From Nitrosopumilus sp. (lineage in GTDB: Archaea > Thermoproteota > Nitrososphaeria > Nitrososphaerales > Nitrosopumilaceae): DNA of 58,201 nt. The number at the start of each line of letters is the position of its first letter. Position 1 is the stretch's first letter. The DNA lies in assembly GCA_003702545.1 (NCBI GenBank), contig REGK01000001.1:1-58201 (forward strand), given 5' to 3'. The position numbers and the translations under genes were made by a program. This document shows, piece after piece, positions 26,539 through 43,575 of this stretch. A model generated the notes under the pieces. It saw only the letters and a program-made list of their open reading frames with translations. It searched no databases and had not been told where the DNA came from.

Positions 26539-26853
26539 TCAAGGATTAACCAAAGCTAATTTTGCCCCAATTCTTTCATAGTATCCATTTTGGTCCATGG
26601 CAGGAACATAAAATGTTGCAGAAATTACATCTCCAACACCTGCACCACAATCTGTCACAACGACAGAATGACCTAAAACAGACTCACCAACACAGCCATA
26701 ATTAGTAACCGCAATGACCGATACATCTTCAGTAACTAGTGTTGGAACTATATTCCAAGGAGTCAATGTGAAAACTAGTATTACTGAAGTTGCTCCAGCC
26801 AAAATCAGCATGAATTTTAGCTGCGGTGTTTTTGTTTGTGTGGTTTGTTGCAT
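26539..26853 (-). CDS. Membrane-anchored hypothetical protein
   Basis: N-terminal TM segment, two Cys; motif-containing promoter upstream. Confidence 0.7.
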   Translation of the reverse strand: MQQTTQTKTPQLKFMLILAGATSVILVFTLTPWNIVPTLVTEDVSVIAVTNYGCVGESVLGHSVVVTDCGAGVGDVISATFYVPAMDQNGYYERIGAKLALVNP

Positions 26854-26880
26854 TTCTCCTCAATATTATTTACATTTTAC

Positions 26881-26921
26881 AAAATATAACCAAGAGTGAG
26901 TTTTGCACCCCAGTGCCAAAA
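26881..26921 (-). promoter_or_regulatory. TATA-like box plus upstream recurring motif copy (sense TTTTGGCACTGG)
   Basis: Plus strand CCAGTGCCAAAA at 26910-26921; sense TTATAT begins at 26889, gap 20 nt. Confidence 0.6.
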
Positions 26922-26922
26922 T

Positions 26923-27252
26923 TTAGATTTTGCAATCACAGCCTTTCTGTTTTAAAATTTGAATTTGTCTAGAGGGAGAATCAACAAAAATATCTTGGAT
27001 TGAATTGCCAGTTGCCTTTCTCTTATCTAGAGGGCTTTTGTGAGAATATCCCCTACGAGCCATCTCAAAAACAAGTTCTTCATGCCTAGAATAGAGAGCT
27101 TTTAGTTTTCCTTTCCAACGTATTGTCTCAGGGTGTAAAGAATATCCTTTTTTGTCTTGAGTGATTACTGCCCACATTGCATGTAGTTCTCGGTGCTCAC
27201 CTAACAAATGGTTTCTACATAATTTCTTTGGAGGAATATCCCAAATTCTCAT
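26923..27252 (-). CDS. Pyrimidine dimer DNA glycosylase / T4 endonuclease V family
   Basis: MRIWD.PPKKLCRNHLLGEHRELH...RHEELVFEMARRGYSH.SPL pattern; start set at ATG 27252. Confidence 0.85.
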   Translation of the reverse strand: MRIWDIPPKKLCRNHLLGEHRELHAMWAVITQDKKGYSLHPETIRWKGKLKALYSRHEELVFEMARRGYSHKSPLDKRKATGNSIQDIFVDSPSRQIQILKQKGCDCKI

Positions 27253-27254
27253 TT

Positions 27255-27380
27255 TTATGAATTCCAAAATTTTTTACAATTATAACACTGATTCTTGTGA
27301 ATTAGTCCATCAGAGTTTTTTCTTATTTCTATTGTTCCATAGTCATCAGAACCACAAGTAGGACATCCTTCATCTCTCAT
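27255..27380 (-). CDS. 41-aa zinc-ribbon microprotein
   Basis: Manual translation MRDEGCPTCGSDDYGTIEIRKNSDGLIHKNQCYNCKKFWNS; abuts both neighbouring genes. Confidence 0.75.
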   Translation of the reverse strand: MRDEGCPTCGSDDYGTIEIRKNSDGLIHKNQCYNCKKFWNS

Positions 27381-27821
27381 CTAAAATACACCCCTCATTC
27401 TTGCAGAATAATCATAATAAAACAAATTTTGAGGAGTGATTTCAATTGCTACTTCATTATGAGAATTTTTTTTCAGGAATTTTGATAACTCATATTCTTT
27501 TTCACCCAAGTATTTTTTCATTAAAATTTGGAGAATGTCTTTTCCAACATCATCAATGATTTTTACAGAGCCATTTCCACGTACTCCTTTGTAAGGCGGT
27601 TTATCAGATGCTATCTCAAATCCACAAACAGTGTTTTTTTTCAAATATTGAATGATTTTTGCAGACTTTTGTGTTGCACAATAAATTTTCTCATTAATTT
27701 GTACAAACCAAAGAGACAGAACGCTTGGAATACCGTCATTATTCATGTATGCAAGACGGATAGGAATTTTAGTATCAGAAATCATTTGATCATAATTTCT
27801 TTTTTCAAGTTTTTGTAACAT
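27381..27821 (-). CDS. Pyridoxamine 5'-phosphate oxidase-like flavin-binding split-barrel protein
   Basis: RLAY...GIPSVLSLWF...CATQKSAKI...YKGVRG pattern. Confidence 0.8.
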   Translation of the reverse strand: MLQKLEKRNYDQMISDTKIPIRLAYMNNDGIPSVLSLWFVQINEKIYCATQKSAKIIQYLKKNTVCGFEIASDKPPYKGVRGNGSVKIIDDVGKDILQILMKKYLGEKEYELSKFLKKNSHNEVAIEITPQNLFYYDYSARMRGVF

Positions 27822-27924
27822 TACTGTCCACCTTATTGATTACATATTTTGTATAACAGAAATCACAAGACCAATCTTCATATTTTTTACCACAAGTAAA
27901 ACAAGATGATATAATTTGACTCAT
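27805..27924 (-). CDS. 39-aa Cys4 microprotein
   Basis: MSQIISSCFTCGKKYEDWSCDFCYTKYVINKVDSNVTKT; ATG about 20 nt below a TTATATA box; overlaps the next gene start. Confidence 0.6.
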   Translation of the reverse strand: MSQIISSCFTCGKKYEDWSCDFCYTKYVINKVDSNVTKT

Positions 27925-27943
27925 AACAAGGATTGGTTTTAGA

Positions 27944-28018
27944 GTATATAATGTGAAAAAGAATTGCCACCTAGTGCTAATGTTAGCACCAGCAGCAATT
28001 ATGGCCACTAGTTAAATA
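27944..28018. promoter_or_regulatory. Divergent promoter with two TATA boxes and three motif copies
   Basis: CTAGTGCTAA 27971-27980, TTAGCACCAG 27983-27992, TGGCCACTAG 28002-28011; TATA boxes at 27945-27951 (-) and 28012-28018 (+). Confidence 0.7.
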
Positions 28019-28048
28019 GCAGATTTGGAAAAAGATCACGAACAAGAC

Positions 28049-28336
28049 ATGACAGATATAATCTGGGGAAATGGCGCAAATGTAGTATCAAACGATATTT
28101 TTGTTCTTAATGTTACACACAGAAAAAGTGGCAATAGTGGAAAATATTCAGATACTGAAAAAATCAGAATATCTGAAGCAGATATTCCAGGTCTACCACA
28201 TACAAGAGAAGATTGGAATGAAGAATCTCTGAAATCATGCGTAAATGAAGCCTTTCTGAAATGTGAAATTGAGCAAAGAGAGGATTCAGGTATTCTCTCT
28301 GCCAAAGTATCACATTCAGGAGTTGGCGGATACTAA
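28049..28336 (+). CDS. Hypothetical protein
   Basis: ORF 28025-28336; ATG 28049 fits the TATA spacing; TAATG-coupled to the next gene. Confidence 0.65.
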   Translation: MTDIIWGNGANVVSNDIFVLNVTHRKSGNSGKYSDTEKIRISEADIPGLPHTREDWNEESLKSCVNEAFLKCEIEQREDSGILSAKVSHSGVGGY

Positions 28337-29112
28337 TGTGGATGCCAAAACAAGGAAGTTGCAGTAAAATCACAAGGAGTGATTTCCAATTACTAATTCA
28401 AGGGAAGATACCTGCAATCATCATCAAAAATTTTTACAGTAAAAATCAATGTGATGAAATTTCTCAAAAAATTAACTCAATACAAAAATCAGATTTTAGC
28501 AATACAAAACTAGAACACATTGGAACATTTTTGATGGCACATGCAACAAAAAGGAAAGAATATTTTGAGAATGTAAAAAAAGACAAGAAAAAAAGACAAG
28601 AGATTTTTTCAACAGATATAGAACCCACTGTCAGGATTTTCAAGATATTTAAAAAACTATTTCCAGAATATGAGGTTTCTACAGCAAAGGAATTAAAAAA
28701 TGAATTTTCCCCATACATCATTAGAATTCATAAAAAAGGAAAATCAATTCCAATACACAAAGACAATGTGAAATATGAAGGTAGAGAATACAAACTATCA
28801 AAAATTGACAGTCAATTATCCTGTATTTTACATATCCAGGAATCAGAGAAAGGAGGAGAGTTGATAATTTATGATAAAAACTGGTCTATGGAAGATGAAA
28901 AATTCAGGAAAATAGATTTTGGATATTATCCGGAAATTATTTCAGAATCAAATTGTTGTAGAATATCAAATCTAAAAGCAGGAGATTTGGCAATAATTAA
29001 TCCAAACTATTTTCATCAAGTAACAAAAATTGAAGGAGAGGCACCAAGGATTTCTCTAGGAATGTTTATAGGAATTTTCAAGAAATATCAACAAATTGTA
29101 GGATGGGCATAA
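28336..29112 (+). CDS. 2OG-Fe(II) oxygenase superfamily protein
   Basis: HxD (IHKD), GGEL, distal His (FHQV) and R-x-S (RIS) motifs. Confidence 0.85.
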   Translation: MWMPKQGSCSKITRSDFQLLIQGKIPAIIIKNFYSKNQCDEISQKINSIQKSDFSNTKLEHIGTFLMAHATKRKEYFENVKKDKKKRQEIFSTDIEPTVRIFKIFKKLFPEYEVSTAKELKNEFSPYIIRIHKKGKSIPIHKDNVKYEGREYKLSKIDSQLSCILHIQESEKGGELIIYDKNWSMEDEKFRKIDFGYYPEIISESNCCRISNLKAGDLAIINPNYFHQVTKIEGEAPRISLGMFIGIFKKYQQIVGWA

Positions 29113-29759
29113 TGAAAAAAATTATTTTTATTGTTTTTGCACTGGCGATAATTTCAACAAACTATGCATCAGCCCACAAACTCATTAGTCATGATGACAG
29201 CCACAGAGATTTTGACTCAGCATTAGTCATTCCTGATCACAAGATTTCATGGGCAATTTATGAAAATCTAGGTGTAAATGAGGCCAAATTTTACACATTT
29301 GAGGCAAAAAAAGGAGATTCATTTTATGCAAGTATTGTAATTCCAAAAATCCAAGGATTAGAAAACTATGCACCCACACTAGTAATGGTTGGAGAAGATA
29401 ATTTTTTCAGGGATAAGGTAATTTATGAAAATGGTTTTCCAGGAAAAGAGTTCTATGAACCATTTGGCCAAGTAACATATTGGGAAAGACAAGAATTAAG
29501 AACAGAGATACCAAAAGATGGAACTTATTTCATAGTTGTTACAGATGAAAAAAACCAAAGCGGAAAATATAGTTTGGCAGTTGGAGAAATAGAGGACTTT
29601 TCAGGAGAAAACATGTTTACGTTATTACCTAAAGCATGGTTAGACACAAAATTTTTTGTAAATGATTATGTATCAATAGTAATTGCCTTTGGGATTTTTC
29701 TTGCGATGTGCAGTGTACCAGTAATTGCAATTTTCAAAAAAAGAAAAACAAAGCTTTAG
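29112..29759 (+). CDS. Exported protein with a C-terminal membrane anchor
   Basis: Signal peptide ending ASA-HK; FYEPF motif; C-terminal TM followed by a basic tail. Confidence 0.75.
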   Translation: MKKIIFIVFALAIISTNYASAHKLISHDDSHRDFDSALVIPDHKISWAIYENLGVNEAKFYTFEAKKGDSFYASIVIPKIQGLENYAPTLVMVGEDNFFRDKVIYENGFPGKEFYEPFGQVTYWERQELRTEIPKDGTYFIVVTDEKNQSGKYSLAVGEIEDFSGENMFTLLPKAWLDTKFFVNDYVSIVIAFGIFLAMCSVPVIAIFKKRKTKL

Positions 29760-29788
29760 CTAATTTTATTAAAATTCACGCATAAGAA

Positions 29789-29820
29789 AATTAGTTTGGT
29801 CTAATTAGTTTTGTCTAATT
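29789..29820. promoter_or_regulatory. Tandem imperfect palindromes AATTAG-N6-CTAATT
   Basis: aattagtttggtctaattagttttgtctaatt, about 10 nt upstream of TTTAATA at 29830. Confidence 0.55.
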
Positions 29821-29858
29821 TTCGAGTTGTTTAATAGAATTGAGAACTAAATTGGACT

Positions 29859-30140
29859 ATGAATGCATGGAATAAATTTTGGAAATGGTATGAAAATAAA
29901 ATACTTGGAAGTATAATTGTAATTGCAATTATTCAGTTCATTCAAGTTCCGCACATGGTATGGAATGCAGATATTATGCTAGAGGCAGGACTTGTTTCAA
30001 GAGTTCATCCTGTAATTGACTGGTTCTTGTATGGAGTAGACTTGATTGAGATTGTTTCAATTGTTAATGTTGGAATGATTATGTACAGCCTACTCAAGAA
30101 AAGACAATCAAAGAAGAAACTTTCTGCAAAAACAGCATAA
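29859..30140 (+). CDS. Small membrane protein
   Basis: Two hydrophobic segments and a basic tail. Confidence 0.7.
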   Translation: MNAWNKFWKWYENKILGSIIVIAIIQFIQVPHMVWNADIMLEAGLVSRVHPVIDWFLYGVDLIEIVSIVNVGMIMYSLLKKRQSKKKLSAKTA

Positions 30141-30965
30141 CTAATCTTTTGCTTCCCAGATAACACGTTGAGGAAATGGAATTTCCACTCCAGCCCTATC
30201 TAAGGCACGTTTTACAGTCGTAAGTAAGATGGGTTGAGCTTGACTCCAGTCATCTTTAGGATGCCATACCAAAACCTGGATATTTACGCTTGAATCACCC
30301 AATTCTTCAACCCTAAATTCAGGTTCTGGTACTTTCAAGACAAAAGGCATTGTGACTTCAATCTCTTTTTTTATCACAGAGATTGCATTTTCGATATCAT
30401 CTTTGTAGGATATACCAACCATAACATCTGCACGCCTTACAGTTGAAGCAGTTAAGGATCGAATATTTGAGGTAAAAAACTTCTCATTAGGGATTCGGAT
30501 AACAGTTCCATCAAATTTCCTTACACGACTAGAAAAAGTTCCAATATCTAACAAAGTTCCTGAAATAGACATGTCAGGAATCTGAATAGTATCTCCTTGT
30601 TTTGCAGGTTTTTCCAACATCAAGAAAACACCTGATATTAAATTGGAAACCACAGATTGTGTTGCAAATCCAATAACTACAGCAAATATTCCTCCGGCGA
30701 CAAGTAATCCAGACAAATCAATGCCTTGACTTGATGTGAATGCAAGAAATGAAATTATTATAATTCCAAAATAGAGTAACTTGCTGAGATTTTGTGCAGT
30801 GTCTTTAGGTAATGTGGGTGCATAGTATTTGTAAAACAACACCTTTACAACTTTGGCAATAATTAGACCAGTTGCCATAATAATTCCCCCAATCAATAAT
30901 GATAGTACAGTGAGGTTACCAACAATTTGCATCTCAGAGAGATTTTGTAAGAATTCTATAGGCAT
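30141..30965 (-). CDS. mscS: MscS mechanosensitive channel
   Basis: IGFATQSVVSNLISG, GDTI, IPNEK, AGVEIPFPQR; start set at ATG 30965. Confidence 0.93.
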   Translation of the reverse strand: MPIEFLQNLSEMQIVGNLTVLSLLIGGIIMATGLIIAKVVKVLFYKYYAPTLPKDTAQNLSKLLYFGIIIISFLAFTSSQGIDLSGLLVAGGIFAVVIGFATQSVVSNLISGVFLMLEKPAKQGDTIQIPDMSISGTLLDIGTFSSRVRKFDGTVIRIPNEKFFTSNIRSLTASTVRRADVMVGISYKDDIENAISVIKKEIEVTMPFVLKVPEPEFRVEELGDSSVNIQVLVWHPKDDWSQAQPILLTTVKRALDRAGVEIPFPQRVIWEAKD

Positions 30966-31714
30966 TATTCCAATCCCATCTCCATACTTGTGGTAATAGT
31001 AGTGTCTTCCCATGTGGGAGATTTTGTCCAATCAGTTGAAACAGGAGCTGTTTTGACATCAGCTATACTAACTACAGCTCGTTTTTTCATAGTTACTTTA
31101 ATTCCATCAATTATCGCTTTGGAATCCTCATAGTATAATGAGTTATCAGTTATGGGGAAAATTACTTTACTAACGGTCTGACCAGATGACAGAGTGTTTT
31201 CAATTACAATCTTCATTACTCCCTCAACAAAAGGAATAGAATCACTATAATCAGTAGCCAATGAAACTTCAGCATATTTACAAAGGGTTCCAGTATCAGG
31301 AGAACCATATAGTCCAAATCTTGAGTTCAAGGGATTGCAGGTAATCCAATCAAGTGAATCATGATGAGAGTCATGGATCAAAAATATACCAATTTCAATT
31401 GGGCAGTGCACAAAAATGCTAGCTGCAGAGTTTTCACTAAGATAGATTTCCTTATCAAATTTCAAGAAAACATATCCTGTTCTTCTGGCAGGATGGTTAA
31501 GTGGCCTAATAGGAGCAACTTCAATTTGAATTTGATTGGACTTTACAGGAACCATCTTTTCAACAATTTTTCCCTCAGAATCTTTTCTGAAATATGAAAA
31601 AGCATTTTCTCCAATCCTCTCAATTTTGATCTCAGTGTTTGGAAGTGAGATCTCAAGTAAATCATTTACATCATGTAAACCATATTTGGTGAAAGAATTC
31701 CCAGCATCACTCAT
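30965..31714 (-). CDS. DUF432-like protein
   Basis: PIRPLNHP, PIEIGIF, LYGSPDTGTLCKY; coupled to mscS. Confidence 0.7.
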   Translation of the reverse strand: MSDAGNSFTKYGLHDVNDLLEISLPNTEIKIERIGENAFSYFRKDSEGKIVEKMVPVKSNQIQIEVAPIRPLNHPARRTGYVFLKFDKEIYLSENSAASIFVHCPIEIGIFLIHDSHHDSLDWITCNPLNSRFGLYGSPDTGTLCKYAEVSLATDYSDSIPFVEGVMKIVIENTLSSGQTVSKVIFPITDNSLYYEDSKAIIDGIKVTMKKRAVVSIADVKTAPVSTDWTKSPTWEDTTITTSMEMGLE

Positions 31715-31814: not shown

Positions 31815-33128
31815 TCACTCTAGGTTCAGAGGAATATTTGCACTACCAAAGTCTTCTGCAATTCTAAAGACATAGTCTTTTGAGGAATCATATTCGAATT
31901 CGGTTCCACCATATCCAATGTTTGGACCAAATAGAATGTTAAACTCTCTTGAATCACCAGGGTTTAATACAATTTGTCCACTGGTAAAGTCCATACCAGA
32001 ATATTTGAAGGCCTTTGAGCCATCCCATACATCATATGCACATATTTGGGGACTGGTGCAGTTTAATGCAACAATTTCAGAGCTTGTATTTTCAGCAAGC
32101 ATTCTGAAGGATAAAATCGCTTGACCTGTTGGAGAGATTTTAAATTCGCTTCCATCAGTATTGACTCCCTGCCAATAGTAAGTAATAGGACCTACACTGA
32201 ATTTTTGCGCAGTGGCCTTGTATTCGTATAGTTTAATAGATTTTTTGAGAGGCTTCTCACAGTCTAATCTTTCATAGGCCTTTTTGAATTCAGAGCACTT
32301 TTCAATTTCTGCTTCAATTGCAGCCAATTTTGGATCATTACTTTTCGGTTTAGAAGGTTTTTCTTCGGAGATTTCAGTCAAAGTTGTTGAAATCAATCCC
32401 ATTGACATCAAATGTTGTACACCATTAACAAATTCATTATCTGTAATGATGCCATCTGCCCACCAACCAGCGTTATTCTTTACCCAGGTTGGGACGCCTT
32501 CAGAAGATTCTGCAGAAACAGTTGTTGGAGGAACTTGGATAATTCCATCATTAATTAGAAACTCTATTCCTTTTAGGAAATCAGATTCAGATATAGAACC
32601 ATCTGCCCACCAACCAGCGTTATTCTTTACCCAGGTTGGGACGCCTTCAGAAGTGACTGGTCTAAGACTAGGATCTAGCCCATCTAAAATTTCATCCATG
32701 TTTTGTCCTGAAATTTTTACAACGGCTGCAGAAACGATATCAGAACTATCCCCTGTAGGAAGTGTAGAGTCTATGTATTTTGCATAAAGTACATCTCCAG
32801 GATTTGCAATTAATCGATTCTTTGTGCTTTCTCCAGAATCTGCAACATAAACAGTTCCCTTAAAGATTCCAGTGTAAACACCTGTTTCAACAACTTGTAT
32901 TTCTAATGCTTTTGGTGACGAATCAGACCAGACATATATCATAAACTTGTCAGCAAAATTTGGATATTCTTTTTTATTCATGTCATTATCTTTTACATAG
33001 ATTTCAGCAAAAGAATTACTAGATACAACATCTTGTTTCCAATATATTATTCCAACATTAGAAGATTCAGCATACACTAGGGGAATAGTAAAAAGCAACA
33101 GAGGTAATAGGAAAAAAAGATTTTTCAT
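31815..33128 (-). CDS. Secreted protein with two Trp-rich (VPTWVKNNAGWWADG) repeats
   Basis: Signal peptide; S-layer-like N-domain (VVETGVYTGIFKG); two repeats; C-domain paralogous to 33225-34130. Confidence 0.85.
   Translation of the reverse strand: MKNLFFLLPLLLFTIPLVYAESSNVGIIYWKQDVVSSNSFAEIYVKDNDMNKKEYPNFADKFMIYVWSDSSPKALEIQVVETGVYTGIFKGTVYVADSGESTKNRLIANPGDVLYAKYIDSTLPTGDSSDIVSAAVVKISGQNMDEILDGLDPSLRPVTSEGVPTWVKNNAGWWADGSISESDFLKGIEFLINDGIIQVPPTTVSAESSEGVPTWVKNNAGWWADGIITDNEFVNGVQHLMSMGLISTTLTEISEEKPSKPKSNDPKLAAIEAEIEKCSEFKKAYERLDCEKPLKKSIKLYEYKATAQKFSVGPITYYWQGVNTDGSEFKISPTGQAILSFRMLAENTSSEIVALNCTSPQICAYDVWDGSKAFKYSGMDFTSGQIVLNPGDSREFNILFGPNIGYGGTEFEYDSSKDYVFRIAEDFGSANIPLNLE
32389..32639. 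repeat. 251-bp direct repeat, copy 1
   Basis: Appears identical to 33805-34055 on manual comparison. Confidence 0.9.
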
Positions 33129-33150: not shown

Positions 33151-33205
33151 TATTTAAAAAAAATAATTTTTGATTCCTAGTGGTAAAATTTCAATAGTGG
33201 TAAAA
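33151..33205 (-). promoter_or_regulatory. TATA box plus two motif copies
   Basis: CTAGTGGTAAAA 33177-33188 and ATAGTGGTAAAA 33194-33205; sense TTAAATA at 33157-33151. Confidence 0.7.
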
Positions 33206-33224: not shown

Positions 33225-34130
33225 TTATCCCAACCCTAATGGGATGGAGAGACTTCCAAAGGGCTCACTAATTCTGAAGTGATAATCCTTGTTTGGATCA
33301 TACTCAAATGTGGTTCCACCACCCCCAATGTTTGGTCCAAAGAAAAAGTTGAAGAATCTTGGATCATTAGGTTTGAGTACCAATTGAGCACTTGTAAAGT
33401 CCATTTGGGAGTACTTGTAATCATTGCTACCGTTTGAAACATCATAATTACATACTGCAGGTCCAGTACAGTATAATGCCTCATTTTTATCACTACCTGT
33501 GTTTTCAGCTAGGAATCTAAGATAAAGCAAAGCTTGACCTGAAGAAGATATTTCAAAACTGTTTCCCTCAGTATTTAATCCAGACCAATAGTATGTAATT
33601 GGACCAACTTGATATGTTTGAGAGTTGAGTTTGTACTCATAGACTGCAATTTTATTCTCTGCTGCTTTTTCACAATTTAGTCGATCATATGCTTTGTTTA
33701 TTTCAGAACATGCCTCCAGTTCGGATTGATATCTAGATAGTTCTGAATCAGTGTTTTGTAGAGGAGTGGTTTTAACATCTTCTACGGCTTCATTTGAGGC
33801 AACAGAAATCAATCCCATTGACATCAAATGTTGTACACCATTAACAAATTCATTATCTGTAATGATGCCATCTGCCCACCAACCAGCGTTATTCTTTACC
33901 CAGGTTGGGACGCCTTCAGAAGATTCTGCAGAAACAGTTGTTGGAGGAACTTGGATAATTCCATCATTAATTAGAAACTCTATTCCTTTTAGGAAATCAG
34001 ATTCAGATATAGAACCATCTGCCCACCAACCAGCGTTATTCTTTACCCAGGTTGGAACATCAGCATATGCAAAAGACACAGTGGATGCAATTAAGAAAAT
34101 TGTGGCCATTGCAGTTAATTCAGTTTTCAT
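33225..34130 (-). CDS. Secreted protein with two Trp-rich repeats
   Basis: Signal peptide (FAYA-D), two repeats, Cys-containing C-domain paralogous to 31815-33128. Confidence 0.85.
   Translation of the reverse strand: MKTELTAMATIFLIASTVSFAYADVPTWVKNNAGWWADGSISESDFLKGIEFLINDGIIQVPPTTVSAESSEGVPTWVKNNAGWWADGIITDNEFVNGVQHLMSMGLISVASNEAVEDVKTTPLQNTDSELSRYQSELEACSEINKAYDRLNCEKAAENKIAVYEYKLNSQTYQVGPITYYWSGLNTEGNSFEISSSGQALLYLRFLAENTGSDKNEALYCTGPAVCNYDVSNGSNDYKYSQMDFTSAQLVLKPNDPRFFNFFFGPNIGGGGTTFEYDPNKDYHFRISEPFGSLSIPLGLG
33805..34055. repeat. 251-bp direct repeat, copy 2
   Basis: Appears identical to 32389-32639. Confidence 0.9.
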
Positions 34131-34152: not shown

Positions 34153-34251
34153 TATTTAAGCTAGTGCTAAAAATTTTTCTAGTGGTAAAAAATTATGTTT
34201 TTCGGAAAAAATCTAGTGCCAAAAGCATTTCAAGGTAATCTGCCTTATATG
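34153..34251. promoter_or_regulatory. Divergent promoter with three direct motif copies
   Basis: CTAGTGCTAAAA 34161, CTAGTGGTAAAA 34179, CTAGTGCCAAAA 34213; TATA boxes at 34153-34159 (-) and 34245-34251 (+). Confidence 0.75.
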
Positions 34252-35964: not shown

Positions 35965-36054
35965 AATTCATGTCTAATTTGTGCCTAATAACTTGACTAA
36001 TTATCGAAGTTGACGGGAGGTAAACACAAGTATTCCCACATAACTAGAATATTT

Positions 36055-36978
36055 ATGACAATAAACAGAATTGTTTCATTCTTACCAAGTGCAACAGAAT
36101 TACTATATGAATTTGGAGTTCAAGACAAGATATACGGAGTTACACATGAATGTAAATTTCCTACTGAAGCAATTTCAAAACCACAAGTAATCAATTCAGT
36201 GATAGATTCGGATAAATTATCAAGTAATGAGATCAATACACAGACATGTCAATTACTGAACGAAGGAAAAGACATTTTCATTTTAAATGAAAAAAATCTA
36301 AAGGATGCGAATCCAGATCTAATAATCTCTCAGGAGACATGTGAGGTATGTGCGGCATATACCAATCAGATCAGCAAAGCACTACAAATTCTTGATAAAA
36401 AACCAATTATTCATTCAATGGATCCACATAACGTATCAGAAATCTTAGATTCGGTAATCAAACTAGGTAAAATTTTAGAAAAAGATAGCAAAGCAAAAAT
36501 GATTTCAGATTTGTTGAAAAAAAGAATTCAGAAGATACAAAATGTGAGACATAGTAACATTCCAAAAATTCTGGCAATAGAATGGATAGATCCTTTTTTT
36601 ACAGCAGGTCATTGGGTTCCAGAAATGATAGAAATTGCAGGAGGCAAAAATATGATAAGCAATACAGGAGAGCATTCAAGACGTATGGATTTTGATGAGA
36701 TTACAGAATCAGATGCAGATATCATAATTCTCATGCCATGTGGATTTGACACAAAGCGTACAATTTCAGAATACAAGAACATATTAGAAAAAAATGACAG
36801 ATGGAACAAACTCAGAGCAGTAGAAAACAAGGCTGTTTTTGCAGTCGATGCAAATTCATTTTTTAGCAAACCCAGTATTAGAACTATTGAAGGAATAGAG
36901 ATACTTGCAAAAATAATTCACCAAGAAAAATTTGAAGAAGTTAATGTTTCAGAAAATTCTTTTGCAAGCCTTTATTGA
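36055..36978 (+). CDS. BtuF-like cobalamin/iron-siderophore substrate-binding protein
   Basis: RIVSFLPSATE, GVTHEC, QETCEVCA, EWIDPFFTAGHWVPEMI, MPCGF; start set at ATG 36055; no signal peptide visible. Confidence 0.85.
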   Translation: MTINRIVSFLPSATELLYEFGVQDKIYGVTHECKFPTEAISKPQVINSVIDSDKLSSNEINTQTCQLLNEGKDIFILNEKNLKDANPDLIISQETCEVCAAYTNQISKALQILDKKPIIHSMDPHNVSEILDSVIKLGKILEKDSKAKMISDLLKKRIQKIQNVRHSNIPKILAIEWIDPFFTAGHWVPEMIEIAGGKNMISNTGEHSRRMDFDEITESDADIIILMPCGFDTKRTISEYKNILEKNDRWNKLRAVENKAVFAVDANSFFSKPSIRTIEGIEILAKIIHQEKFEEVNVSENSFASLY

Positions 36979-36987: not shown

Positions 36988-38367
36988 TCAAATTGGTTTA
37001 CCTTTGTACTGGTAATCAATTACTTTGTGGAATAAATTATGAGATGCTACAACAGTTAATGTAACTACAAACATTCCAACAAAATTCCTTATTGTCATTA
37101 ATTCATTTGGAGTATTAGCTATCAATGAAGTTTCAAATAACACATAATAGTTATCAAATAACCAAAATGCCAAAGTAATCCAAGACAAGATACCGGCTAT
37201 CAAATAACCCAGACGAGTTTTATTGTGAATTAGTATTATTGAAAACCCAATTGCAAGATACCAAATGGTAGAACAGATTAACCATAAAGGTTCATAGACA
37301 TCAGGTCTATCATCTAACCAATAGTAACTTGAACCAATAACAGCTAATGTAAATAGAGAAACTTGAATTAATTTTTGGTTAATTTTGAATCCAGTTTTTT
37401 CTTCTCGTTGTTGCATTTGAGGAGGATTTGATTTCATTTCTTTTGTTGCAGTATCAATTGCCTCACGCACAGACTTTAGACGAATAGGAATAATTTTTGT
37501 TATGGAATTATCAGTGATGACGGCATTGTGAACCAAACTATCAATTAAAGGCCTTGCAAGAGAAGCTTGTACAGGTGTAACTAGATCAACCCAATAAGAC
37601 GACAATCTAGTAGTCAGAAATGGAATTTGAATGACGAAAAGATTTTTGTTCAGATATGCAGAATAAACACGCATTAATTCCCCATAAGTCATTTTGTCAG
37701 GACCACCAATCTCAAAAATTTTGCCCATGGTTTCAGGTTTTGAAAGAGATTTGATTAGATATTCAATAACATCATCTATTGCAATTGGTTGAGTCAGGGA
37801 CATTACCCAGGAAGGACACACCATAACACTCAATCTTTCTACAAGATAACGAAGCATGGTATAAGATCCACCTTTTGCGCCAATGATTATAGAAGCCCTA
37901 AATTCAGTTACAGGTATACTTCCAGATGCAAGAATTTCACCAACTTCCTTTCTACTGCGCATATGAGGAGATAAATCTAAACTATCATTAACCAATCCGC
38001 CTAAATAGATAATTCGTTTCACACCAGTTTCAGTTGCAGCTCTGAGAAAGTTTTGAGCTTGTATTCTTTCTCTTGCAGCAAATTTTTGCCAATCTTCTTT
38101 ATGACCCTCCATAGAATGCAATAAATAAAATGCAGTGTCAATACCAGACATTGCATTTTTCAATTCATCAAAATTGAAAACATCTGCTTTAACATATTTA
38201 GTATTTTCATTATTAGGTAATTCTTTTCTACTCAGTCCTTTTACTGTATAACCTGATGAAACAAGAGAAGAAATTAATTTTGAACCTATAAAACCAGTTG
38301 CCCCAGTAACCAAAATCGAAAAAGGTTTGTAATGAGAGGCTTTAGATTCAGAAATCAATTGTTTCAT
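36988..38367 (-). CDS. YbjT-like atypical SDR/NAD(P)-binding protein with a C-terminal membrane domain
   Basis: LVTGATGFIG, YLLHSM, IIYLGGL, SPHMRSR, RASIIIG; about four TM helices at the C-terminus. Confidence 0.85.
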   Translation of the reverse strand: MKQLISESKASHYKPFSILVTGATGFIGSKLISSLVSSGYTVKGLSRKELPNNENTKYVKADVFNFDELKNAMSGIDTAFYLLHSMEGHKEDWQKFAARERIQAQNFLRAATETGVKRIIYLGGLVNDSLDLSPHMRSRKEVGEILASGSIPVTEFRASIIIGAKGGSYTMLRYLVERLSVMVCPSWVMSLTQPIAIDDVIEYLIKSLSKPETMGKIFEIGGPDKMTYGELMRVYSAYLNKNLFVIQIPFLTTRLSSYWVDLVTPVQASLARPLIDSLVHNAVITDNSITKIIPIRLKSVREAIDTATKEMKSNPPQMQQREEKTGFKINQKLIQVSLFTLAVIGSSYYWLDDRPDVYEPLWLICSTIWYLAIGFSIILIHNKTRLGYLIAGILSWITLAFWLFDNYYVLFETSLIANTPNELMTIRNFVGMFVVTLTVVASHNLFHKVIDYQYKGKPI

Positions 38368-38574
38368 TTATGATATAGCTCCCATCAGTTCTTGCTTTTG
38401 TTTTTCTTTTTTCACTTTGATGCCTAAACCAATTGTTATGCCGCCCATGGCTAACCAAAGATAGCCCCCAGTAGTGAATGCGGAATGTAGTGACACATCA
38501 GAATATTGTGCAGTTAAAAATCCACCACCAAGACCAAGTAAGGCAATACCTGCAAAAAGAATTGTTTTGTCCAT
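38368..38574 (-). CDS. Small 2-TM membrane protein
   Basis: MDKTILFAGIALLGLGGG...; AAGGAGA upstream; abuts the SDR gene. Confidence 0.7.
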   Translation of the reverse strand: MDKTILFAGIALLGLGGGFLTAQYSDVSLHSAFTTGGYLWLAMGGITIGLGIKVKKEKQKQELMGAIS

Positions 38575-38630: not shown

Positions 38631-38778
38631 TATTTAACATGGTTCTAATTTTTCCTGCTAGTGCTAAATTATCATGTTTTGCCTACAATGTAGGAACAAA
38701 AAATCTCAAGAGTGGAGCATAAATGGCAGTTTAGCACTAGCCAAAGTAGTTAGCATTAGTTATATAATATACCACTAA
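38631..38778. promoter_or_regulatory. Divergent promoter of the regulator with four motif copies
   Basis: CTAGTGCTAAA 38658; TTAGCACTAG 38731, TTAGCATTAG 38750 and ATACCACTAA 38769 (19-bp period) straddling TTATATA at 38760. Confidence 0.75.
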
Positions 38779-38786: not shown

Positions 38787-39629
38787 ATGGTCTACATACG
38801 CGCAAAGAAAGTAAAATCTGATCAATATCTCTATCTAGTGAAAAGCGTGTGGGATTCAAAAAAGAGTACATCAAAACAAGAAATCATCAAATATCTTGGA
38901 AAAGCATCTGAGGTTGTCAAAGAGGACATTCCAATAGACTATAGAAATGATGCTAAAGTACTATCAGTATTAGCATCGTACAATCCAGAAGATATCAAGA
39001 AAAGAGAGGACGTTGCAAAGAAATCAAAGCAGCAACTATACAAAAAATTAACTGAAGGAAACATTCAAGATTGTATAAAAATCTATGAAGAGCATATCAA
39101 AATTTTTAGTTCCTCAAATTTCTTTGATAAAATTCTAAAACCTACAATGCATAGAATTGGAGATGAATGGTCTAAAGGTAAAATGAGTATAGCTACAGAA
39201 CATGTTGCAAGCAATATTGCTCAAACACTTGTAAAAATAATAATGGACCAGGTATCAGCGAAAGGTAATAAGAAGAAAGTTCTCATATGTGTTCCATTAG
39301 GAGAAGAGCATCATTTGGGATGTGACGTCTTGGAGACATATCTATCAATCAAAGGATTCAAAATTTTTAATATGGGGACGTCAATCCCAACAGAATCAAT
39401 TCTTAGTTTCATTGACAACAATAAACCAGATGTAGTATTGGTGTCAATTACATTAGAAGACAATCTGTCAGCAGGCCAAAGACTAGTTAAGAAAATAAAA
39501 GATCATGTAGACATTCCAGTGTTAGTTGGAGGATACGCCCTTCAAGCAAAGAAGATTCCAAAATTTGCAGGTCAGTTAATTCCAGATTGTGGTCTTGAAG
39601 AAGTTCCTAAAATTTTAAGAAAAGTTTAA
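38787..39629 (+). CDS. Cobalamin-binding regulator with CarH/LitR-type photosensor signature and a non-MerR N-terminal domain
   Basis: Helical cap W-SKGKMSIAT-EH (W-x9-EH); Rossmann B12 domain GEEHHLG (ExHxxG), SIT, VGG; basic beta-rich N-terminus. Confidence 0.85.
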   Translation: MVYIRAKKVKSDQYLYLVKSVWDSKKSTSKQEIIKYLGKASEVVKEDIPIDYRNDAKVLSVLASYNPEDIKKREDVAKKSKQQLYKKLTEGNIQDCIKIYEEHIKIFSSSNFFDKILKPTMHRIGDEWSKGKMSIATEHVASNIAQTLVKIIMDQVSAKGNKKKVLICVPLGEEHHLGCDVLETYLSIKGFKIFNMGTSIPTESILSFIDNNKPDVVLVSITLEDNLSAGQRLVKKIKDHVDIPVLVGGYALQAKKIPKFAGQLIPDCGLEEVPKILRKV

Positions 39630-39630: not shown

Positions 39631-40971
39631 CTAATTGCTTGTTTGCAAAAAAGATTCAATCTTGGGTTGACATAAAATCGAACTATGTGCTGCAGAGTCA
39701 GTTCCAATTCCATAGCTAACAGTAGAATCACCCACAAAAAACAAGCCTTCTATGCCTGGAATTTGATGAGGCATCTTTGATTTCCAGACCATCCCAGGTT
39801 CTTTTACCACAGATTCAACTAATTTCCAAGCCATAGGCCTCTCCCATAGCAAGGATGAGTTAAAGTCTGGATATATTGATGAAATTTCATCTTTCATGGA
39901 TTGGACAATTTGTTTTATTTTCTGAGAGTCATCTGCGACAGATGGATCTACAGGAGTACCAGCAATTATCAAGTGTTCACCAGGTGGGGAAACAGAAGAA
40001 GTGATGTTTGAAATGAAAAATATTCCCTTTGTCGTATAATGTTCCCCTACAGGAAAAACAACTTGCCTTGAATCAATTTTAGAATTTAGTGCAAAGTGAA
40101 CCTCAACTACAGCAGTTTTTTTATCTAAACGATTAATTTTTTCAATGAATTTCTTGTCAATTACACCATCATCAAACAATTGATTTAGTGCTATGTAAGC
40201 AGGATATGAAATTACAACACACGAGGTAGGAAAAAATGAATCATCCTCAGTCATAACCCCCGTGACTTTAGAATCAGAAATTACGATTTTTTTCACATGC
40301 TTATTTGTGTCAATTATCCCATTTTTCTCAAGGATGTAATCTGCCAAGACATTTGAAATTGAATCATAACCACCATCGTCCGGATAAGCAAATTCACTTG
40401 TTCCACCCTTGAACGGATTTGCACGAATTATGGTTCTTGCAAATTCACCTAATGAAATATGATCAGCAGTATCTGCAAAAGCTAACATGCACACAGCTTC
40501 AAAAAAGGCTTTTGTGTCATCGTCTAATTTTTTAGTTAATTCAGTAAGAGACTTGTCATCCCATTCTTCAGTTTTTTCAATAGAAGTAAATGCCATTGGG
40601 AGTAGCAATTTAAGTAGACTTAGTCGGCTTCTCATAGGAATTAAAGATAATCGTAGTAAATCACCCATTCCTTTTGGGTATTTATGAAATCCAGTATCAG
40701 AATGAAATGCAATATTGTCAACTTTTGCGAGTTTTAATCTAGATTCAATTCCAATACTTTTCAATACTTCAAAAATTGCAGATTTTTTGTAAAATGGCAT
40801 AATATGGAATCCGTTATCTAAAATGTGGTTTTTGTACATCAACGAGGCAGTTCTGCCTCCTAATTTGGAAGATTTTTCAAGAACTCTCACATGGTGGCCT
40901 TCCTTTGCAAGCAATGCGCCAGTGGTCAAGCCACCCACACCTGCACCTATTACGAAGATATCATCTGCCAT
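39631..40971 (-). CDS. FAD-dependent oxidoreductase, phytoene desaturase/amine oxidase superfamily
   Basis: IGAGVGGL, LEKSSKLGGR, DNGFH, GLFFVGDS. Confidence 0.85.
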   Translation of the reverse strand: MADDIFVIGAGVGGLTTGALLAKEGHHVRVLEKSSKLGGRTASLMYKNHILDNGFHIMPFYKKSAIFEVLKSIGIESRLKLAKVDNIAFHSDTGFHKYPKGMGDLLRLSLIPMRSRLSLLKLLLPMAFTSIEKTEEWDDKSLTELTKKLDDDTKAFFEAVCMLAFADTADHISLGEFARTIIRANPFKGGTSEFAYPDDGGYDSISNVLADYILEKNGIIDTNKHVKKIVISDSKVTGVMTEDDSFFPTSCVVISYPAYIALNQLFDDGVIDKKFIEKINRLDKKTAVVEVHFALNSKIDSRQVVFPVGEHYTTKGIFFISNITSSVSPPGEHLIIAGTPVDPSVADDSQKIKQIVQSMKDEISSIYPDFNSSLLWERPMAWKLVESVVKEPGMVWKSKMPHQIPGIEGLFFVGDSTVSYGIGTDSAAHSSILCQPKIESFLQTSN

Positions 40972-41396
40972 GATTTTTCAGCACATATTACAAATTCATC
41001 CATAGTCTTGCTCATTTTCTTGACAACAAAATTTTGCAAAAAAGGAAATAGTTTAAGGAAGTTATTGAAACGCAAGGTTACATCAATAGTAATCACAGTT
41101 CCATTATCTTTTTCATCATAAAATTCGATAAAAGAACTTCCTTTCAAAGGACCAGTCATAATATAAATTTCATGAATATTAGGATAAACAATGACATGTT
41201 TTGTTTTAATTTGAATTGTTATCCCTAAGAAATTTATTTTCTCATTAACAATTTTTCCATATTTGTTTTCTTCAAGCACATCAAGAGACTTGAAATAATT
41301 TGGCATAATGTTATGAAAATTCTCTACATCAGTACTAATTTGAAAAATGTGTGGTTGTGAAAGTTTTGAATATCTTTGAAGTGTAAACTGTTTCAT
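40950..41396 (-). CDS. SRPBCC/START-like (polyketide cyclase) protein
   Basis: IFQISTDVENFHNIMP...GPLKG...C-terminal helix pattern. Confidence 0.75.
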   Translation of the reverse strand: MKQFTLQRYSKLSQPHIFQISTDVENFHNIMPNYFKSLDVLEENKYGKIVNEKINFLGITIQIKTKHVIVYPNIHEIYIMTGPLKGSSFIEFYDEKDNGTVITIDVTLRFNNFLKLFPFLQNFVVKKMSKTMDEFVICAEKSWQMISS

Positions 41397-41755
41397 TGCG
41401 CAGCAACCATTCCTAAATAATTTGACAAATTTGTCTTTGTAATTTTAAAGTCAGGATAGTTATTCATGATTTGTTTTGCAAGTAATGTCATTGCCATTCT
41501 TACACCATTAGTTTTTTGAGGATCAGTGTTTGGATAAAGACGAATTGTTGTTTTGTTTTTCTTAGTAGAAATTTCAATTAGAAATTCTTGATGATTCTCA
41601 TCAACTACCACTGTTGGAAGTAACGCAGTAAAATTATCTTTGTCAACAAAAATAGTTTGAATTTTTATCAGTGATGAATTTCTTTGGAATATAGGTGAAA
41701 AATTTTCTGAGAAATTATTCAGATCAATTTTGCCATTAAATACAATATGAGGCAT
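41393..41755 (-). CDS. Hypothetical protein
   Basis: 120 aa; ATGA overlap with the SRPBCC gene; TATA box upstream. Confidence 0.75.
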   Translation of the reverse strand: MPHIVFNGKIDLNNFSENFSPIFQRNSSLIKIQTIFVDKDNFTALLPTVVVDENHQEFLIEISTKKNKTTIRLYPNTDPQKTNGVRMAMTLLAKQIMNNYPDFKITKTNLSNYLGMVAAQ

Positions 41756-41776
41756 GAATTTTTTATCGTTTTTCAG

Positions 41777-41880
41777 TATATAAAAAAACTAGAAAATTAT
41801 CATAGTGCCAACATATGATTAGATAATCCATTAATAGGCACAAATTAGCACTAGAATAATACATTTTTGAGATTAAAATA
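41777..41880. promoter_or_regulatory. Divergent promoter with two motif copies
   Basis: ATAGTGCCAA 41802-41811 (18 nt from the - strand TATA) and TTAGCACTAG 41845-41854 (18 nt from TTAAAATA at 41873). Confidence 0.7.
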
Positions 41881-41901
41881 CTACCAGAGCAAAAAAAGAT
41901 T

Positions 41902-42042
41902 ATGGGACAAACAAATGAATTAGAATCAACATATGCAGCAATTGCAGAAAGTAAAGAAAAATTATTTGAAATGTTATTAAAAAAACTATCAACGAGTAAA
42001 GATTTAGAAAGTACAATGGCAAGAGTAGTAGCTGTTTCATAG
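41902..42042 (+). CDS. 46-aa hypothetical helical protein
   Basis: MGQTNELESTYAAIAESKEKLFEMLLKKLSTSKDLESTMARVVAVS; lies at leaderless distance from a TATA box. Confidence 0.55.
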   Translation: MGQTNELESTYAAIAESKEKLFEMLLKKLSTSKDLESTMARVVAVS

Positions 42043-42046
42043 TAAA

Positions 42047-42277
42047 TTGTTTAAATTAAAACCATACAAGCCAAATATTTTAACTGCATTTGGAGTTATG
42101 TTTTTAATTTCTGCAGCTATAATTCCAATACAAAATTTGATAGTATGGGGACCTGATTATGTACATCATTTTTACACATCATCAGAAATTACATCTGAAA
42201 AAATATCTATCGGAGTAATTGTATTAGGGATTTCATTTATTATTTTAGGATACAAAAAGCAAGTACACATAGAGTGA
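42047..42277 (+). CDS. Small 2-TM membrane protein
   Basis: Two hydrophobic segments. Confidence 0.65.
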   Translation: MFKLKPYKPNILTAFGVMFLISAAIIPIQNLIVWGPDYVHHFYTSSEITSEKISIGVIVLGISFIILGYKKQVHIE

Positions 42278-42314
42278 TTAGCACTAGAAAAAATATTTTC
42301 TTCATCTTAAATAA
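42278..42314 (+). promoter_or_regulatory. Motif copy plus TATA box upstream of the TFB operon
   Basis: TTAGCACTAG 42278-42287; TTAAATAA at 42307, gap 19 nt. Confidence 0.72.
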
Positions 42315-42334
42315 TTTCAAAACATAGTCAATGC

Positions 42335-42487
42335 ATGAAACAAGAATTAATTCAAAAACAAAACAATGAATTAAAAATTAAAAATAATGAAATGAAAACT
42401 TCTATTAATTATAGCGATTCAAAAATTAATTTAAACGAGTATAATATCTCATGTGAAGACTTGAGTATTCTTTTGTGGAGAGTGTAA
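42335..42487 (+). CDS. 50-aa hypothetical protein preceding TFB
   Basis: MKQELIQKQNNELK...SCEDLSILLWRV; stops 1 nt before the tfb ATG. Confidence 0.45.
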   Translation: MKQELIQKQNNELKIKNNEMKTSINYSDSKINLNEYNISCEDLSILLWRV

Positions 42488-42488
42488 A

Positions 42489-43400
42489 ATGATTACAGAG
42501 CTAGTACATCAGAAAACATGTAAAAAAAACAGAGTTGTAACAGATATCAATACAGGTGAAATTGCATGTATGAATTGTGGTGCAGTATTATCTGAAAGAG
42601 TAGTAGATAGTAGACCTGAAAATTTAGGAATGTCTGGAGAAGAATATCAAGCAAATAGCAGAGTAGGAAGAAAAATTTCATTAAAAATGATAGATATGGG
42701 ATTGTCAACCATCATAGAATCTAAAGACAAAGATGCAACTGGAAAAGGGTTATCCAATGAAAACAAGAGGATGTTTTATCGCCTACGTATGTGGGATAGA
42801 AACAGTCGTTCTGCAAGCACCGTAAAGTCATTTCAAAAGGCATTTACCATGCTTGATGGAATTAGCGCAAAATTGGGACTTCCAGAACCAGTTATAGAGC
42901 AAACAGCATATCTATTTCGAAAAATTGCTGCAAAGAAGATCCTTGCAGGGAGATCAACTGCAGGAATACTTTGTGCTGCAATTTACATTACATGCAGAAT
43001 GACAAACATTCCCAGAACACTCCAGGATGTAGCAAACGCGGGAAATGTGAATAAGAAAAATATCCAAAGAACATACAGATTTCTTGCCAGAGAGTTAGAC
43101 ATTACACCTGAAATTTATAATCCAACAGAATTCGTTACAAGAATTGCAAAAGCTGTAGACATTTCTGAAAAAACAGAAAGGTTGGCATTTAAAATTCTAA
43201 ATTTATCAGCAAGGAAAGGAGTTTCAGAAAGCAAAAATCCAATGGCGATGGCAGCAGCTGCAACATATCTTGCATCAGTACGAAATAACGAAAAGATTTC
43301 ACAGTTAAAAATTTCCAAAGTATCTGGAATCAGTGCAGTTACAATTAGAGACAGAACAAAGGAAATTTTGACGAAGGTAGGAGGTGAGATAAATGGGTAG
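42489..43400 (+). CDS. tfb: Transcription initiation factor IIB paralog (divergent)
   Basis: TGEIACMNCG zinc ribbon, DMGLSTII, RLRMWD, PRTLQDVA, ISAVTIRDR. Confidence 0.93.
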   Translation: MITELVHQKTCKKNRVVTDINTGEIACMNCGAVLSERVVDSRPENLGMSGEEYQANSRVGRKISLKMIDMGLSTIIESKDKDATGKGLSNENKRMFYRLRMWDRNSRSASTVKSFQKAFTMLDGISAKLGLPEPVIEQTAYLFRKIAAKKILAGRSTAGILCAAIYITCRMTNIPRTLQDVANAGNVNKKNIQRTYRFLARELDITPEIYNPTEFVTRIAKAVDISEKTERLAFKILNLSARKGVSESKNPMAMAAAATYLASVRNNEKISQLKISKVSGISAVTIRDRTKEILTKVGGEING

Positions 43401-43575
43401 AACATGTAGAGGAATTTGTCAAATGCATGAAGCGGGACCAGCTCCAAATAAAATTAGATATGAGATTGGACAAAAAAGGTGTACATTCTGTGGAATATTC
43501 ATGTCAACTTGTGATACAAGGTGTATGTGCTGCAAAGCTGTACTAAGAACAAAAGCAAGGAGTAAGAAAAAGTAG
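43393..43575 (+). CDS. Small Cys-rich basic protein
   Basis: CRGIC...CTFC...CMCC; overlaps the tfb stop. Confidence 0.75.
   Translation: MGRTCRGICQMHEAGPAPNKIRYEIGQKRCTFCGIFMSTCDTRCMCCKAVLRTKARSKKK

Follow-up and report, generated by a model that had tools for sequence, protein, structure and literature searches.

The described systems closest to the one discussed here are the bacterial cobalamin-dependent regulators CarH and class I LitR (Thermus thermophilus CarH, or TtCarH, PDB 5C8D/5C8E; Myxococcus xanthus; Bacillus megaterium). Our subject is a candidate archaeal counterpart, a 280-residue protein and the genes that surround it in a 58,201-nucleotide stretch of DNA (the window) from a Nitrosopumilus sp., one of the ammonia-oxidising archaea (AOA). 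The window is contig C78 of a 1.22-Mb genome that is 93.6% complete, and the named close homologues are from Nitrosopumilus. With CarH and class I LitR the archaeal protein shares a four-helix bundle and Rossmann B12 module, the sequence signatures W-x9-EH and E-x-H-x2-G-x41-S-x-T and, for its model, a TM-score of ~0.62 over the query; the two kinds of system also share a direct-repeat operator placed over a core promoter element, and photoprotective cargo genes. The archaeal system is unlike them in having no MerR winged helix, no histidine after the signature tryptophan and no phytoene synthase that we could find, and also in its operator: CarH and class I LitR bind tandem 11-bp repeats, whereas the repeats here lie 17-20 bp apart, have another consensus, and are set in an archaeal promoter with its B recognition element (BRE) and TATA box.

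The photocobilins and CtMerR (PDB 8J2W/8J2X and 8JBS/8JBT) furnish the best structural and profile matches to the B12 module, and they show that such a module can be fused to other outputs; unlike the output here, theirs are bilin-binding, diguanylate cyclase or MerR domains. The outputs of B12 photoreceptors listed in PMC11796333 are HTH, DGC, BBD, GAF and MEDS; the letters "archae" do not occur in its main text, and its 1561-sequence network may include AOA proteins. In Pseudomonas, class II LitR controls photolyase and RudS (PMC11417400). That regulon (phrB, litR, rudS) resembles the archaeal one in placing a photolyase and a DUF1722/RudS protein under a B12-type regulator, a pairing that is met again at one of our distant loci (L117, below), and differs from it in being bacterial and having a regulator of MerR type. 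A likeness of another sort is to transposases: the N-terminal domain of IS1634 is a three-stranded beta head with the same pattern of residues (M-x-[YF]-x-R ... Y-x-Y-L-V ... W/R-D ... Q-x-x-x-x-Y-L-G) that is found in the archaeal regulator, where, unlike in IS1634, it is fused to a B12 module and there is no DDE domain.

Our analysis suggests that the 280-residue protein is probably a light-sensing repressor, dependent on adenosylcobalamin (AdoCbl), that would bind repeats in its own promoter and in about eight others of a ~17-kb block (window positions 26539 to 43575, ~1.4% of the genome). That regulator, operator and cargo genes together form a regulon is, on the comparative evidence, which supports it well, very probable. 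The gene in question is:

38787 to 39629, plus strand: regulator, 280 amino acids (aa), with an N-terminal beta domain (aa 1-62), a bundle of four helices and, for B12 binding, a Rossmann module

A domain scan finds B12-binding_2 and B12-binding domains at aa ~80-260. The residues that matter are G125xxW128-x9-E138H139, G172EEH175, S220xT and G248G249. In an alignment of 57 full-length homologues (from which L038 and L053, with no call of a full N-terminus, L040, with no open reading frame (ORF) call, and L012, a divergent paralogue without the signature, were omitted) G-x-x-W, W-x9-EH and G-x-x-H, that is, W128, E138, H139 and H175, are invariant, and the CarH signature that the initial annotation had seen in this B12-binding regulator is thereby borne out. 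The same signature is present in 78/78 full-length homologues of a second set, which shares 8 loci with the first, and W-x9-EH in 39 of 45 full-length distant representatives. The B12-binding motif ExHx2Gx41SxV/Tx22-27GG is present in the window protein with its spacing of 41 kept; among the 57, E/DxH is found in 57, ExHxxG in 42, SxT/V in 50 and GG in 56. The window protein also has all four elements of the SignatureFinder light-responsive set (GxxW, EH, GxxH and GxxxP), the last of which is represented among the 57 by its Pro in 57 and its Gly in 21. An AlphaFold model (pLDDT 88.9) consists of a four-helix bundle and Rossmann fold that Foldseek matches to TtCarH with E ~1e-11, and all 25 Foldseek matches listed are B12 photoreceptors (photocobilin, TtCarH and CtMerR structures). 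The top 4 matches of a sequence-profile search are likewise not methyltransferase corrinoid proteins, photocobilin chains coming first. Identification as MetH or a methyltransferase corrinoid protein was rejected on the presence of the W-x9-EH signature; no methyltransferase was found among the neighbour families scanned at regulator loci, and a separate MetH-sized match of ~835 aa lies on contig C11. The CarH hidden Markov model covers only aa 80-263 of the protein, and NF052513 scores 65 bits against a cut-off of 400 bits. The regulator is a variant of the CarH kind, not a member of the CarH family.

Several side observations concern the distribution of this architecture. Automatic JGI names label some homologues "MerR family, light-induced transcriptional regulator", and their head is not MerR. 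A divergent second paralogue in L012 (genome G115), found also in G211, G221, G233 and G234, keeps the head, has lost the Trp and EH, and probably has lost light sensing; in the vicinity of the L012 copy are a photolyase, a MEDS protein and a winged-helix gene. The division into two paralogues resembles the CarA/CarH split. Three distant fusions of head and B12 module (P0325, P0343, P0367) are of unlike composition, two of them without W-x9-EH, and may come from outside the AOA. In L226 (G032) the regulator is frameshifted, the operators remain and DUF1722 was not found; that regulon is possibly in decay.

In the model, residues 2-39 of the head form three beta strands, with 10 Lys/Arg to 3 Asp/Glu, and a profile scan of 39 members gave no MerR or HTH match to the head. 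A MerR winged-helix head was therefore rejected, and the regulator is not a MerR-family CarH. Fold searches of the head gave no Foldseek match at E<=0.001 and a best Z of 3.9; sequence searches against PDB, Pfam, NCBIfam and PHROGs gave no match, and the Atlas only unnamed clusters under 0.9. Run against a phylum sample of 201 genomes at E 1e-4 per genome, the profile of the head picks up an IS1634 transposase as well as a Fic protein; in its own genome (1402 ORFs) it ranks 3 of 9 annotated IS1634 N-termini above all other ORFs, and HHalign gives a probability of 95.5% for its match to an IS1634 N-terminus profile. A 50%-cluster library yields 1001 head matches at E<=0.001. Thirty lower-ranked ones that were scanned comprise 1 DDE transposase (E 3.6e-11), 3 HNH proteins, 1 AbiEii, 13 B12 fusions and 12 without family. 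The regulator has no DDE domain match, its IS1634 kinship being confined to the N-terminal head. Judged by these comparisons of sequence, the head is a mobile domain that has been captured by a B12 module, and, with its invariant Arg, Lys, Tyr and Trp residues, it is likely to bind nucleic acid. We found no description of its function in the literature. The beta head also occurs on Fic, HNH, AbiEii and unannotated proteins (L112:1434-2321, P0336, P0342, P0378, P0364 and ~12 proteins of 160-185 aa), and matches of 50-110 aa that consist of head only mostly resemble truncated regulators.

The putative operator is a 10-mer, TT(A/G)(G/C)CA(C/T)TAG, directly repeated in the intergenic DNA of the block. 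Strict matches to this motif number 16 genome-wide, 9 of them inside the block, a count that is circular in that the motif was taken from the block. Because of that circularity, a matrix was trained solely on the regulator promoters of 57 loci of other genomes. It finds five tandem sites in the genome of the window, 5/5 inside the block, and 12 sites in the block's intergenic DNA (mean in shuffled sequence 0.06, maximum 1 in 500 shuffles), so the shared promoter motif previously reported, the regulator's own promoter included, stands. The operators are:

38731 to 38778, plus strand: autoregulatory operator with one repeat at 38731 and another 19 bp on at 38750, the latter abutting the TATA box at 38760
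38769, plus strand: third, weaker autoregulatory copy, between the TATA box and the regulator start codon
38639 to 38667, minus strand: operator before the 68-aa membrane ORF and short-chain dehydrogenase/reductase (SDR) unit; distal copy strong, proximal copy degenerate
27971 to 27980, minus strand, and 27983 to 27992 and 28002 to 28011, plus strand: back-to-back operators of a divergent promoter (matrix scan)
26910 to 26919, minus strand: weak operator copy before the 104-aa gene (matrix scan)
33177 to 33203, minus strand: tandem operator before surface protein 1, copies 17 bp apart
34161 to 34170, 34179 to 34188 and 34213 to 34222, minus strand: three operator copies between surface protein 2 and DUF1722
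41802 to 41811, minus strand: operator of the 120-aa/SRPBCC-like/flavin-oxidoreductase unit, 18 bp upstream of TATA
41845 to 41854, plus strand: operator before the 46-aa ORF and the 76-aa membrane ORF
42278 to 42287, plus strand: operator upstream of the 50-aa ORF and TFB, 19 bp upstream of TATA

In related RNA contigs, the 104-aa gene is preceded by a full operator copy. Nine block promoters combine a site and a TATA box on the same strand at typical offsets; genome-wide there are 19 such combinations, 11 of them in the block, and control offsets gave 6 and 5. The start codon lies 27-31 bases downstream of TATA in six of the nine, as expected for leaderless transcripts. The proximal copy stands directly upstream of TATA and the distal copy 17-20 bp farther upstream. 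Of 332 strong sites in intergenic DNA, drawn from 60 loci together with the window, 45 have a TATA-like box at offset 0/+1 and 146 have one at 17-20, against a flat control. The most frequent arrangement has a strong copy whose end lies 19-20 bp upstream of TATA, together with a degenerate proximal copy. A held-out set of regulator promoters (80 further loci, less 8 that overlap the training set and 1 for which no start was found) has the pair exactly 19 bp apart in 70/71 and TATA abutting in 68; the in-gene control is 0/71. The distance from repeat to TATA is fixed across three AOA families. The BRE, which is read by TFB, lies immediately upstream of TATA. The repeat as an ordinary BRE was rejected: only 2 of 124 TATA promoters of the genome have the sequence at the BRE position, and both are in the block. 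Elsewhere in the genome are four single sites with a 19-bp TATA offset (G000:C60:19692, C35:34129, C69:5163 and C69:11651), three of them with no clear downstream gene of at least 40 aa; small RNAs or short ORFs are possible there.

The comparative case was made on a class sample of 251 genomes, 187 in the AOA order and 64 outside it. A genome counts as regulator-positive if it has a full or near-full regulator (best E<=1e-27), a definition that takes in one frameshifted copy and one genome with the divergent paralogue only. On that definition the regulator is present in 97 of the 187 (90 are negative) and in none of the 64; in the genus of the window 34 genomes are positive and 24 negative. 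It occurs in three AOA families, and the system extends beyond surface marine clades. A protein tree made by a quick method, with long branches flagged, needs for these families the minimum possible number of changes, two, which fits inheritance with losses. A loose tandem pattern of the repeat matched 207/251 genomes, mostly in coding repeats, and was dropped for a stricter one; a tandem scan limited to 17-18 bp spacing missed the main 19-bp class and was replaced. Since the strict pattern was derived from positive genomes, the negative genomes are the independent side of the comparison. At least one match is found in 83/97 positive and 14/90 negative genomes; at least two, that is, beyond the self-promoter, in 53/97 and 1/90, the one being a simple repeat (within the genus, 25/34 and 0/24). 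Around nre, operator sites number 0-1 per locus in 20 regulator-negative genomes and 5-10 in 8 positive ones.

The cargo follows suit. Positive versus negative, cyclobutane pyrimidine dimer (CPD) photolyase is found in 29/97 versus 2/90, the pyrimidine-dimer glycosylase in 39/97 versus 3/90, and COG3046-type photolyase in 6/97 versus 0/90; at the level of the genus, one or another of the three is present in 27/34 versus 0/24, DUF1722 over its cut-off in 31/34 versus 0/24, and the surface C-domain in 33/34 versus 3/24 (of these three, two are fragments and one is a full copy without operator). Photolyase and glycosylase are nearly exclusive alternatives, occurring together in 2/71 genomes. Operator and cargo thus track the regulator across genomes, and this comparative check favours the earlier reading of the locus as sensor, operator and effectors.

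Photolyase or glycosylase units at a distance from the regulator, or on contigs other than its own, are also preceded by operators (L062, L063, L064, L069, L072, L074, L075, L076 and L080), photolyase being the unit in L062, L064 and L069 and glycosylase in L072, L074, L075 and L076. L117 has a back-to-back operator pair between a flavodoxin-like gene with a COG3046 photolyase on one side and TudS-DUF1722 (RudS) on the other. Two sites of the window's own genome, C53:26946 and C69:11401, fit the geometry, and L076 and L117 contain homologues that have a site. A glycosylase unit in L126 (G177:C84) is preceded by a series of operator-like repeats at 18-19 bp spacing, which give four overlapping tandem matches. 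In L056-L060, the loci of family f2, the regulator is flanked upstream by glycosylase, DUF6789 and an M50 peptidase fusion, and downstream by an operator-bearing pyridine-nucleotide oxidoreductase.

How might such a system work? On the model of CarH (PMC8156234), an AdoCbl-loaded oligomer would in the dark put two beta-sheet heads on two repeats and block TFB; the 19-bp period, about two helical turns, would place both heads on about one face of the DNA, and since the proximal repeat covers the bases that TFB reads, binding would block initiation. Light would cleave the Co-C bond, the oligomer would fall apart and the DNA would be released. Leaderless transcripts would then be made for dimer repair (the glycosylase here, photolyases in relatives), DUF1722/RudS and redox enzymes, and also for the surface proteins, the extra TFB and the regulator itself, and autoregulation would refill the sensor pool after irreversible photolysis. 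AOA produce AdoCbl. The genome encodes methylmalonyl-CoA mutase, an enzyme that uses AdoCbl (PMC4303638). On the larger scale we lean towards an AOA light-sensing transcription system in which a B12 photoreceptor set on a domesticated IS1634 head, inherited by the three families from their ancestor and, in many lineages, lost together with its entire module, gates TFB at an operator with 19-bp spacing and, by way of the extra TFB, perhaps reprograms daylight transcription.

A number of observations weigh against this interpretation. The cobalt-ligating His that follows the signature Trp in light-state TtCarH is absent in 57/57 homologues, and DNA binding by the head is only inferred because the head has no solved homologue. 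The 14/90 negative genomes with one tandem match exceed the 4/90 of the reversed control. None of the three dimer-repair families is found in 31/97 positive genomes. The Nre tree shows presence to be clustered, its 29 rows needing only 3 changes; the counts given above are therefore not independent, and kinship inflates them. Persistence of the motif without the regulator was to be looked for, and the motif is largely absent from negative genomes; nevertheless G157 (99% complete, 60 contigs) has operators before glycosylase and DUF1722, and G190 has a tandem site and a photolyase, with no regulator found in either of these two fragmented assemblies. A site at threshold is lacking before the photolyase genes of L061 and L067 (genus g10), L065 and L066 (family f3) and L068 (upstream DNA cut by the contig end), and also before the unit in L077, L073 having given no glycosylase call; no operator was found near the COG3046 gene in L114-L116. 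Finally, many promoters have their strong copy in the distal position, and with that arrangement an activator also fits.

Archaeal activators bind just upstream of the BRE, and the same regulator on the same operator could accordingly activate, or act both ways, by recruiting TFB from the distal repeat, an arrangement to which the commonest operator geometry, with its degenerate proximal copy, would be suited. We think this unlikely. In 68/71 held-out loci a strong copy is retained over the BRE position of the regulator's promoter, the window has the third copy between TATA and start, and the CarH proteins that have been characterised repress in the dark (PMC8156234). Comparably unlikely is a regulator of this kind that senses not light but the cobalamin pool (AdoCbl supply, oxidation, nitric oxide (NO) adducts) and governs a general oxidative and nitrosative stress regulon: the cargo is largely redox enzymes and surface proteins, dimer-repair genes are missing from a third of positive genomes, the regulator spans three AOA families and there is an interplay of NO and cobalamin in stressed AOA (PMC7490402), all of which would agree with pool sensing; on the other side of the balance, the signature validated for light response (PMC11796333) is kept, with GxxW, EH and GxxH in 57/57, photolyases, which require light, are nearly confined to positive genomes, several of them with the operator, and no cobalamin synthesis gene was recognised behind the 19 site and TATA combinations of the window genome.

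The two remaining alternatives dispense with the B12 protein as the reader of the repeat. If some other factor recognised the repeat (which might, for instance, be a variant BRE for the extra TFB), the B12 protein would merely be one of the regulated genes; the proximal copy does lie at the BRE position, and a TFB paralogue (any TFB being counted) is a neighbour in 53/79 regulator loci. Yet a BRE is single and the repeat comes in tandem with a constant 19-bp spacing, many repeat-bearing regulator loci, including all five of f2, have no TFB nearby, and the head's invariant residues and its transposase kinship fit DNA binding by the regulator, which leaves this reading improbable. That the block is a co-inherited island and the repeat a transposon-end remnant without regulatory role is hardly to be believed: it could appeal to the transposase-related head and to the phylogenetic clustering of presence, but the cargo is spread over three different junctions between core genes and over distant clusters, and the fixed distance from repeat to TATA across three families is a positional constraint that largely refutes it.

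The cargo and the genes between which it is placed are as follows:

26539 to 26853, minus strand: 104-aa secreted or membrane protein, function unassigned
26923 to 27252, minus strand: pyrimidine-dimer DNA glycosylase (PF03013)
27255 to 27380, minus strand: 41-aa ORF between the PNPOx-like gene and the glycosylase, Zn-ribbon-like on weak matches
27381 to 27821, minus strand: PNPOx-like flavin-binding protein (matches below cut-offs)
27805 to 27924, minus strand: 39-aa CxxC...CxxC ORF, first gene of the glycosylase operon
28049 to 28336, plus strand: 95-aa hypothetical protein, first gene after the plus-strand operator
28336 to 29112, plus strand: 2-oxoglutarate-Fe(II) oxygenase (WelO5-like profile)
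29103 to 29759, plus strand: 218-aa exported or membrane protein, likely co-transcribed; occurs in regulator loci
29859 to 31714: 93-aa gene, mscS and DUF432, core scaffold outside the regulon, without operator; retained in most regulator-negative loci
31815 to 33128, minus strand: surface protein 1, with signal peptide, two WxKNNAGWWADG repeats and a conserved C-domain
33225 to 34130, minus strand: surface protein 2, the most constant cargo gene
34274 to 34801, plus strand: stand-alone DUF1722 (YbgA-like)
34804 to 36978: nre and BtuF-like binding protein, core scaffold outside the regulon, without operator
36988 to 38367, minus strand: NAD(P)-binding SDR with C-terminal membrane part; family in 28/61 regulator loci
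38368 to 38574, minus strand: 68-aa membrane protein, first gene of the SDR unit
39631 to 40971, minus strand: FAD-dependent oxidoreductase of the amine-oxidase/desaturase superfamily; closest solved structures, the uncharacterised oxidoreductases 3ka7 and 3nrn
40950 to 41396, minus strand: probable SRPBCC/polyketide-cyclase-like protein (weak profile matches)
41393 to 41755, minus strand: 120-aa conserved hypothetical protein, also in family f2 regulator loci
41902 to 42042, plus strand: 46-aa ORF
42047 to 42277, plus strand: 76-aa membrane ORF
42335 to 42487, plus strand: 50-aa ORF ending just upstream of the extra TFB start; may be a leader peptide
42489 to 43400, plus strand: extra TFB paralogue; no counterpart was found here in 20 regulator-negative nre loci
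43393 to 43575, plus strand: 60-aa Cys-rich ORF

Four small ORFs in this list are additions to that of the initial annotation: the Cys-rich ones of 39 and 41 aa in the glycosylase operon and those of 46 and 50 aa upstream of TFB. The cargo genes that had been named are all at their places, the SRPBCC assignment resting only on weak Polyketide_cyc matches (in 8/13 aligned members, E up to 0.1, best 8e-5, the window protein itself falling below cut-off). The motif assigned to their units is real, with two qualifications: for DUF1722 there is nothing but a copy in reverse orientation, within the promoter region that it has in common with a surface gene, and the motif reaches the glycosylase by way of an operon that also has two small Zn-finger-like ORFs. 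Nre and the BtuF-like protein are, as had been said, without a motif copy, and so are mscS, DUF432 and the gene at 29859-30140; nre and the BtuF-like gene were rejected as members of the regulon on that ground and as core scaffold, nre being present in 35/36 regulator-negative genomes. In regulator-negative loci (20 of the genus's 24) the usual order is cysS, 93-aa gene, mscS, DUF432, nre, BtuF-like gene, ychF, with no cargo between. What had been taken for a single 17-kb block is therefore three islands at three junctions among core genes, which appear and vanish together. Contigs from four metatranscriptome runs, which carry no light metadata and give no ranking of genes, cover the regulator and TFB, the SDR and glycosylase units and the two surface genes.

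A carotenoid role and CrtI identity for the oxidoreductase were rejected: TIGR02734 covers only aa 6-55 and scores below its cut-off. The label "CrtI-like" cannot be read as carotenoid synthesis, because no phytoene/squalene synthase (PF00494) was found in the 93.6%-complete genome. The SDR may be "YbjT-like". The surface genes share an identical 254-nt segment (32389-32642 and 33805-34058), which suggests recent duplication or gene conversion of the surface repeat region; for their C-domain, the Atlas holds only unnamed AOA clusters. A second TFB in the window (49205-50152) has no operator and is retained in regulator-negative genomes.

AOA are abundant, make cobalamin and are photoinhibited (PMC4303638), and photolyases mark their surface populations (PMC4839502, PMC13591554). 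We found neither a named light sensor or regulator for AOA in the literature nor, in a full-text search to which subscription journals are mostly external, a published description of a CarH-like regulator or its operator in them. If the proposal is correct, this regulon would be the first in archaea with a B12 photoreceptor, and the regulator's head a new class of DNA-binding domain. Cultured strains have homologues of the regulator (Nitrosopumilus cobalaminigenes, Ca. N. koreensis AR1 and Ca. Nitrosopumilus sp. SW), and a candidate sensor, a precise operator and a list of genes thus make light acclimation of AOA directly testable in culture. The system would also serve to mark ecotypes that are exposed to light, probably adds a DNA-binding domain to those known, and might supply archaeal promoters with a green-light switch; for the organisms themselves, microbes that light inhibits, it is likely to be a light switch for UV-repair and stress genes.

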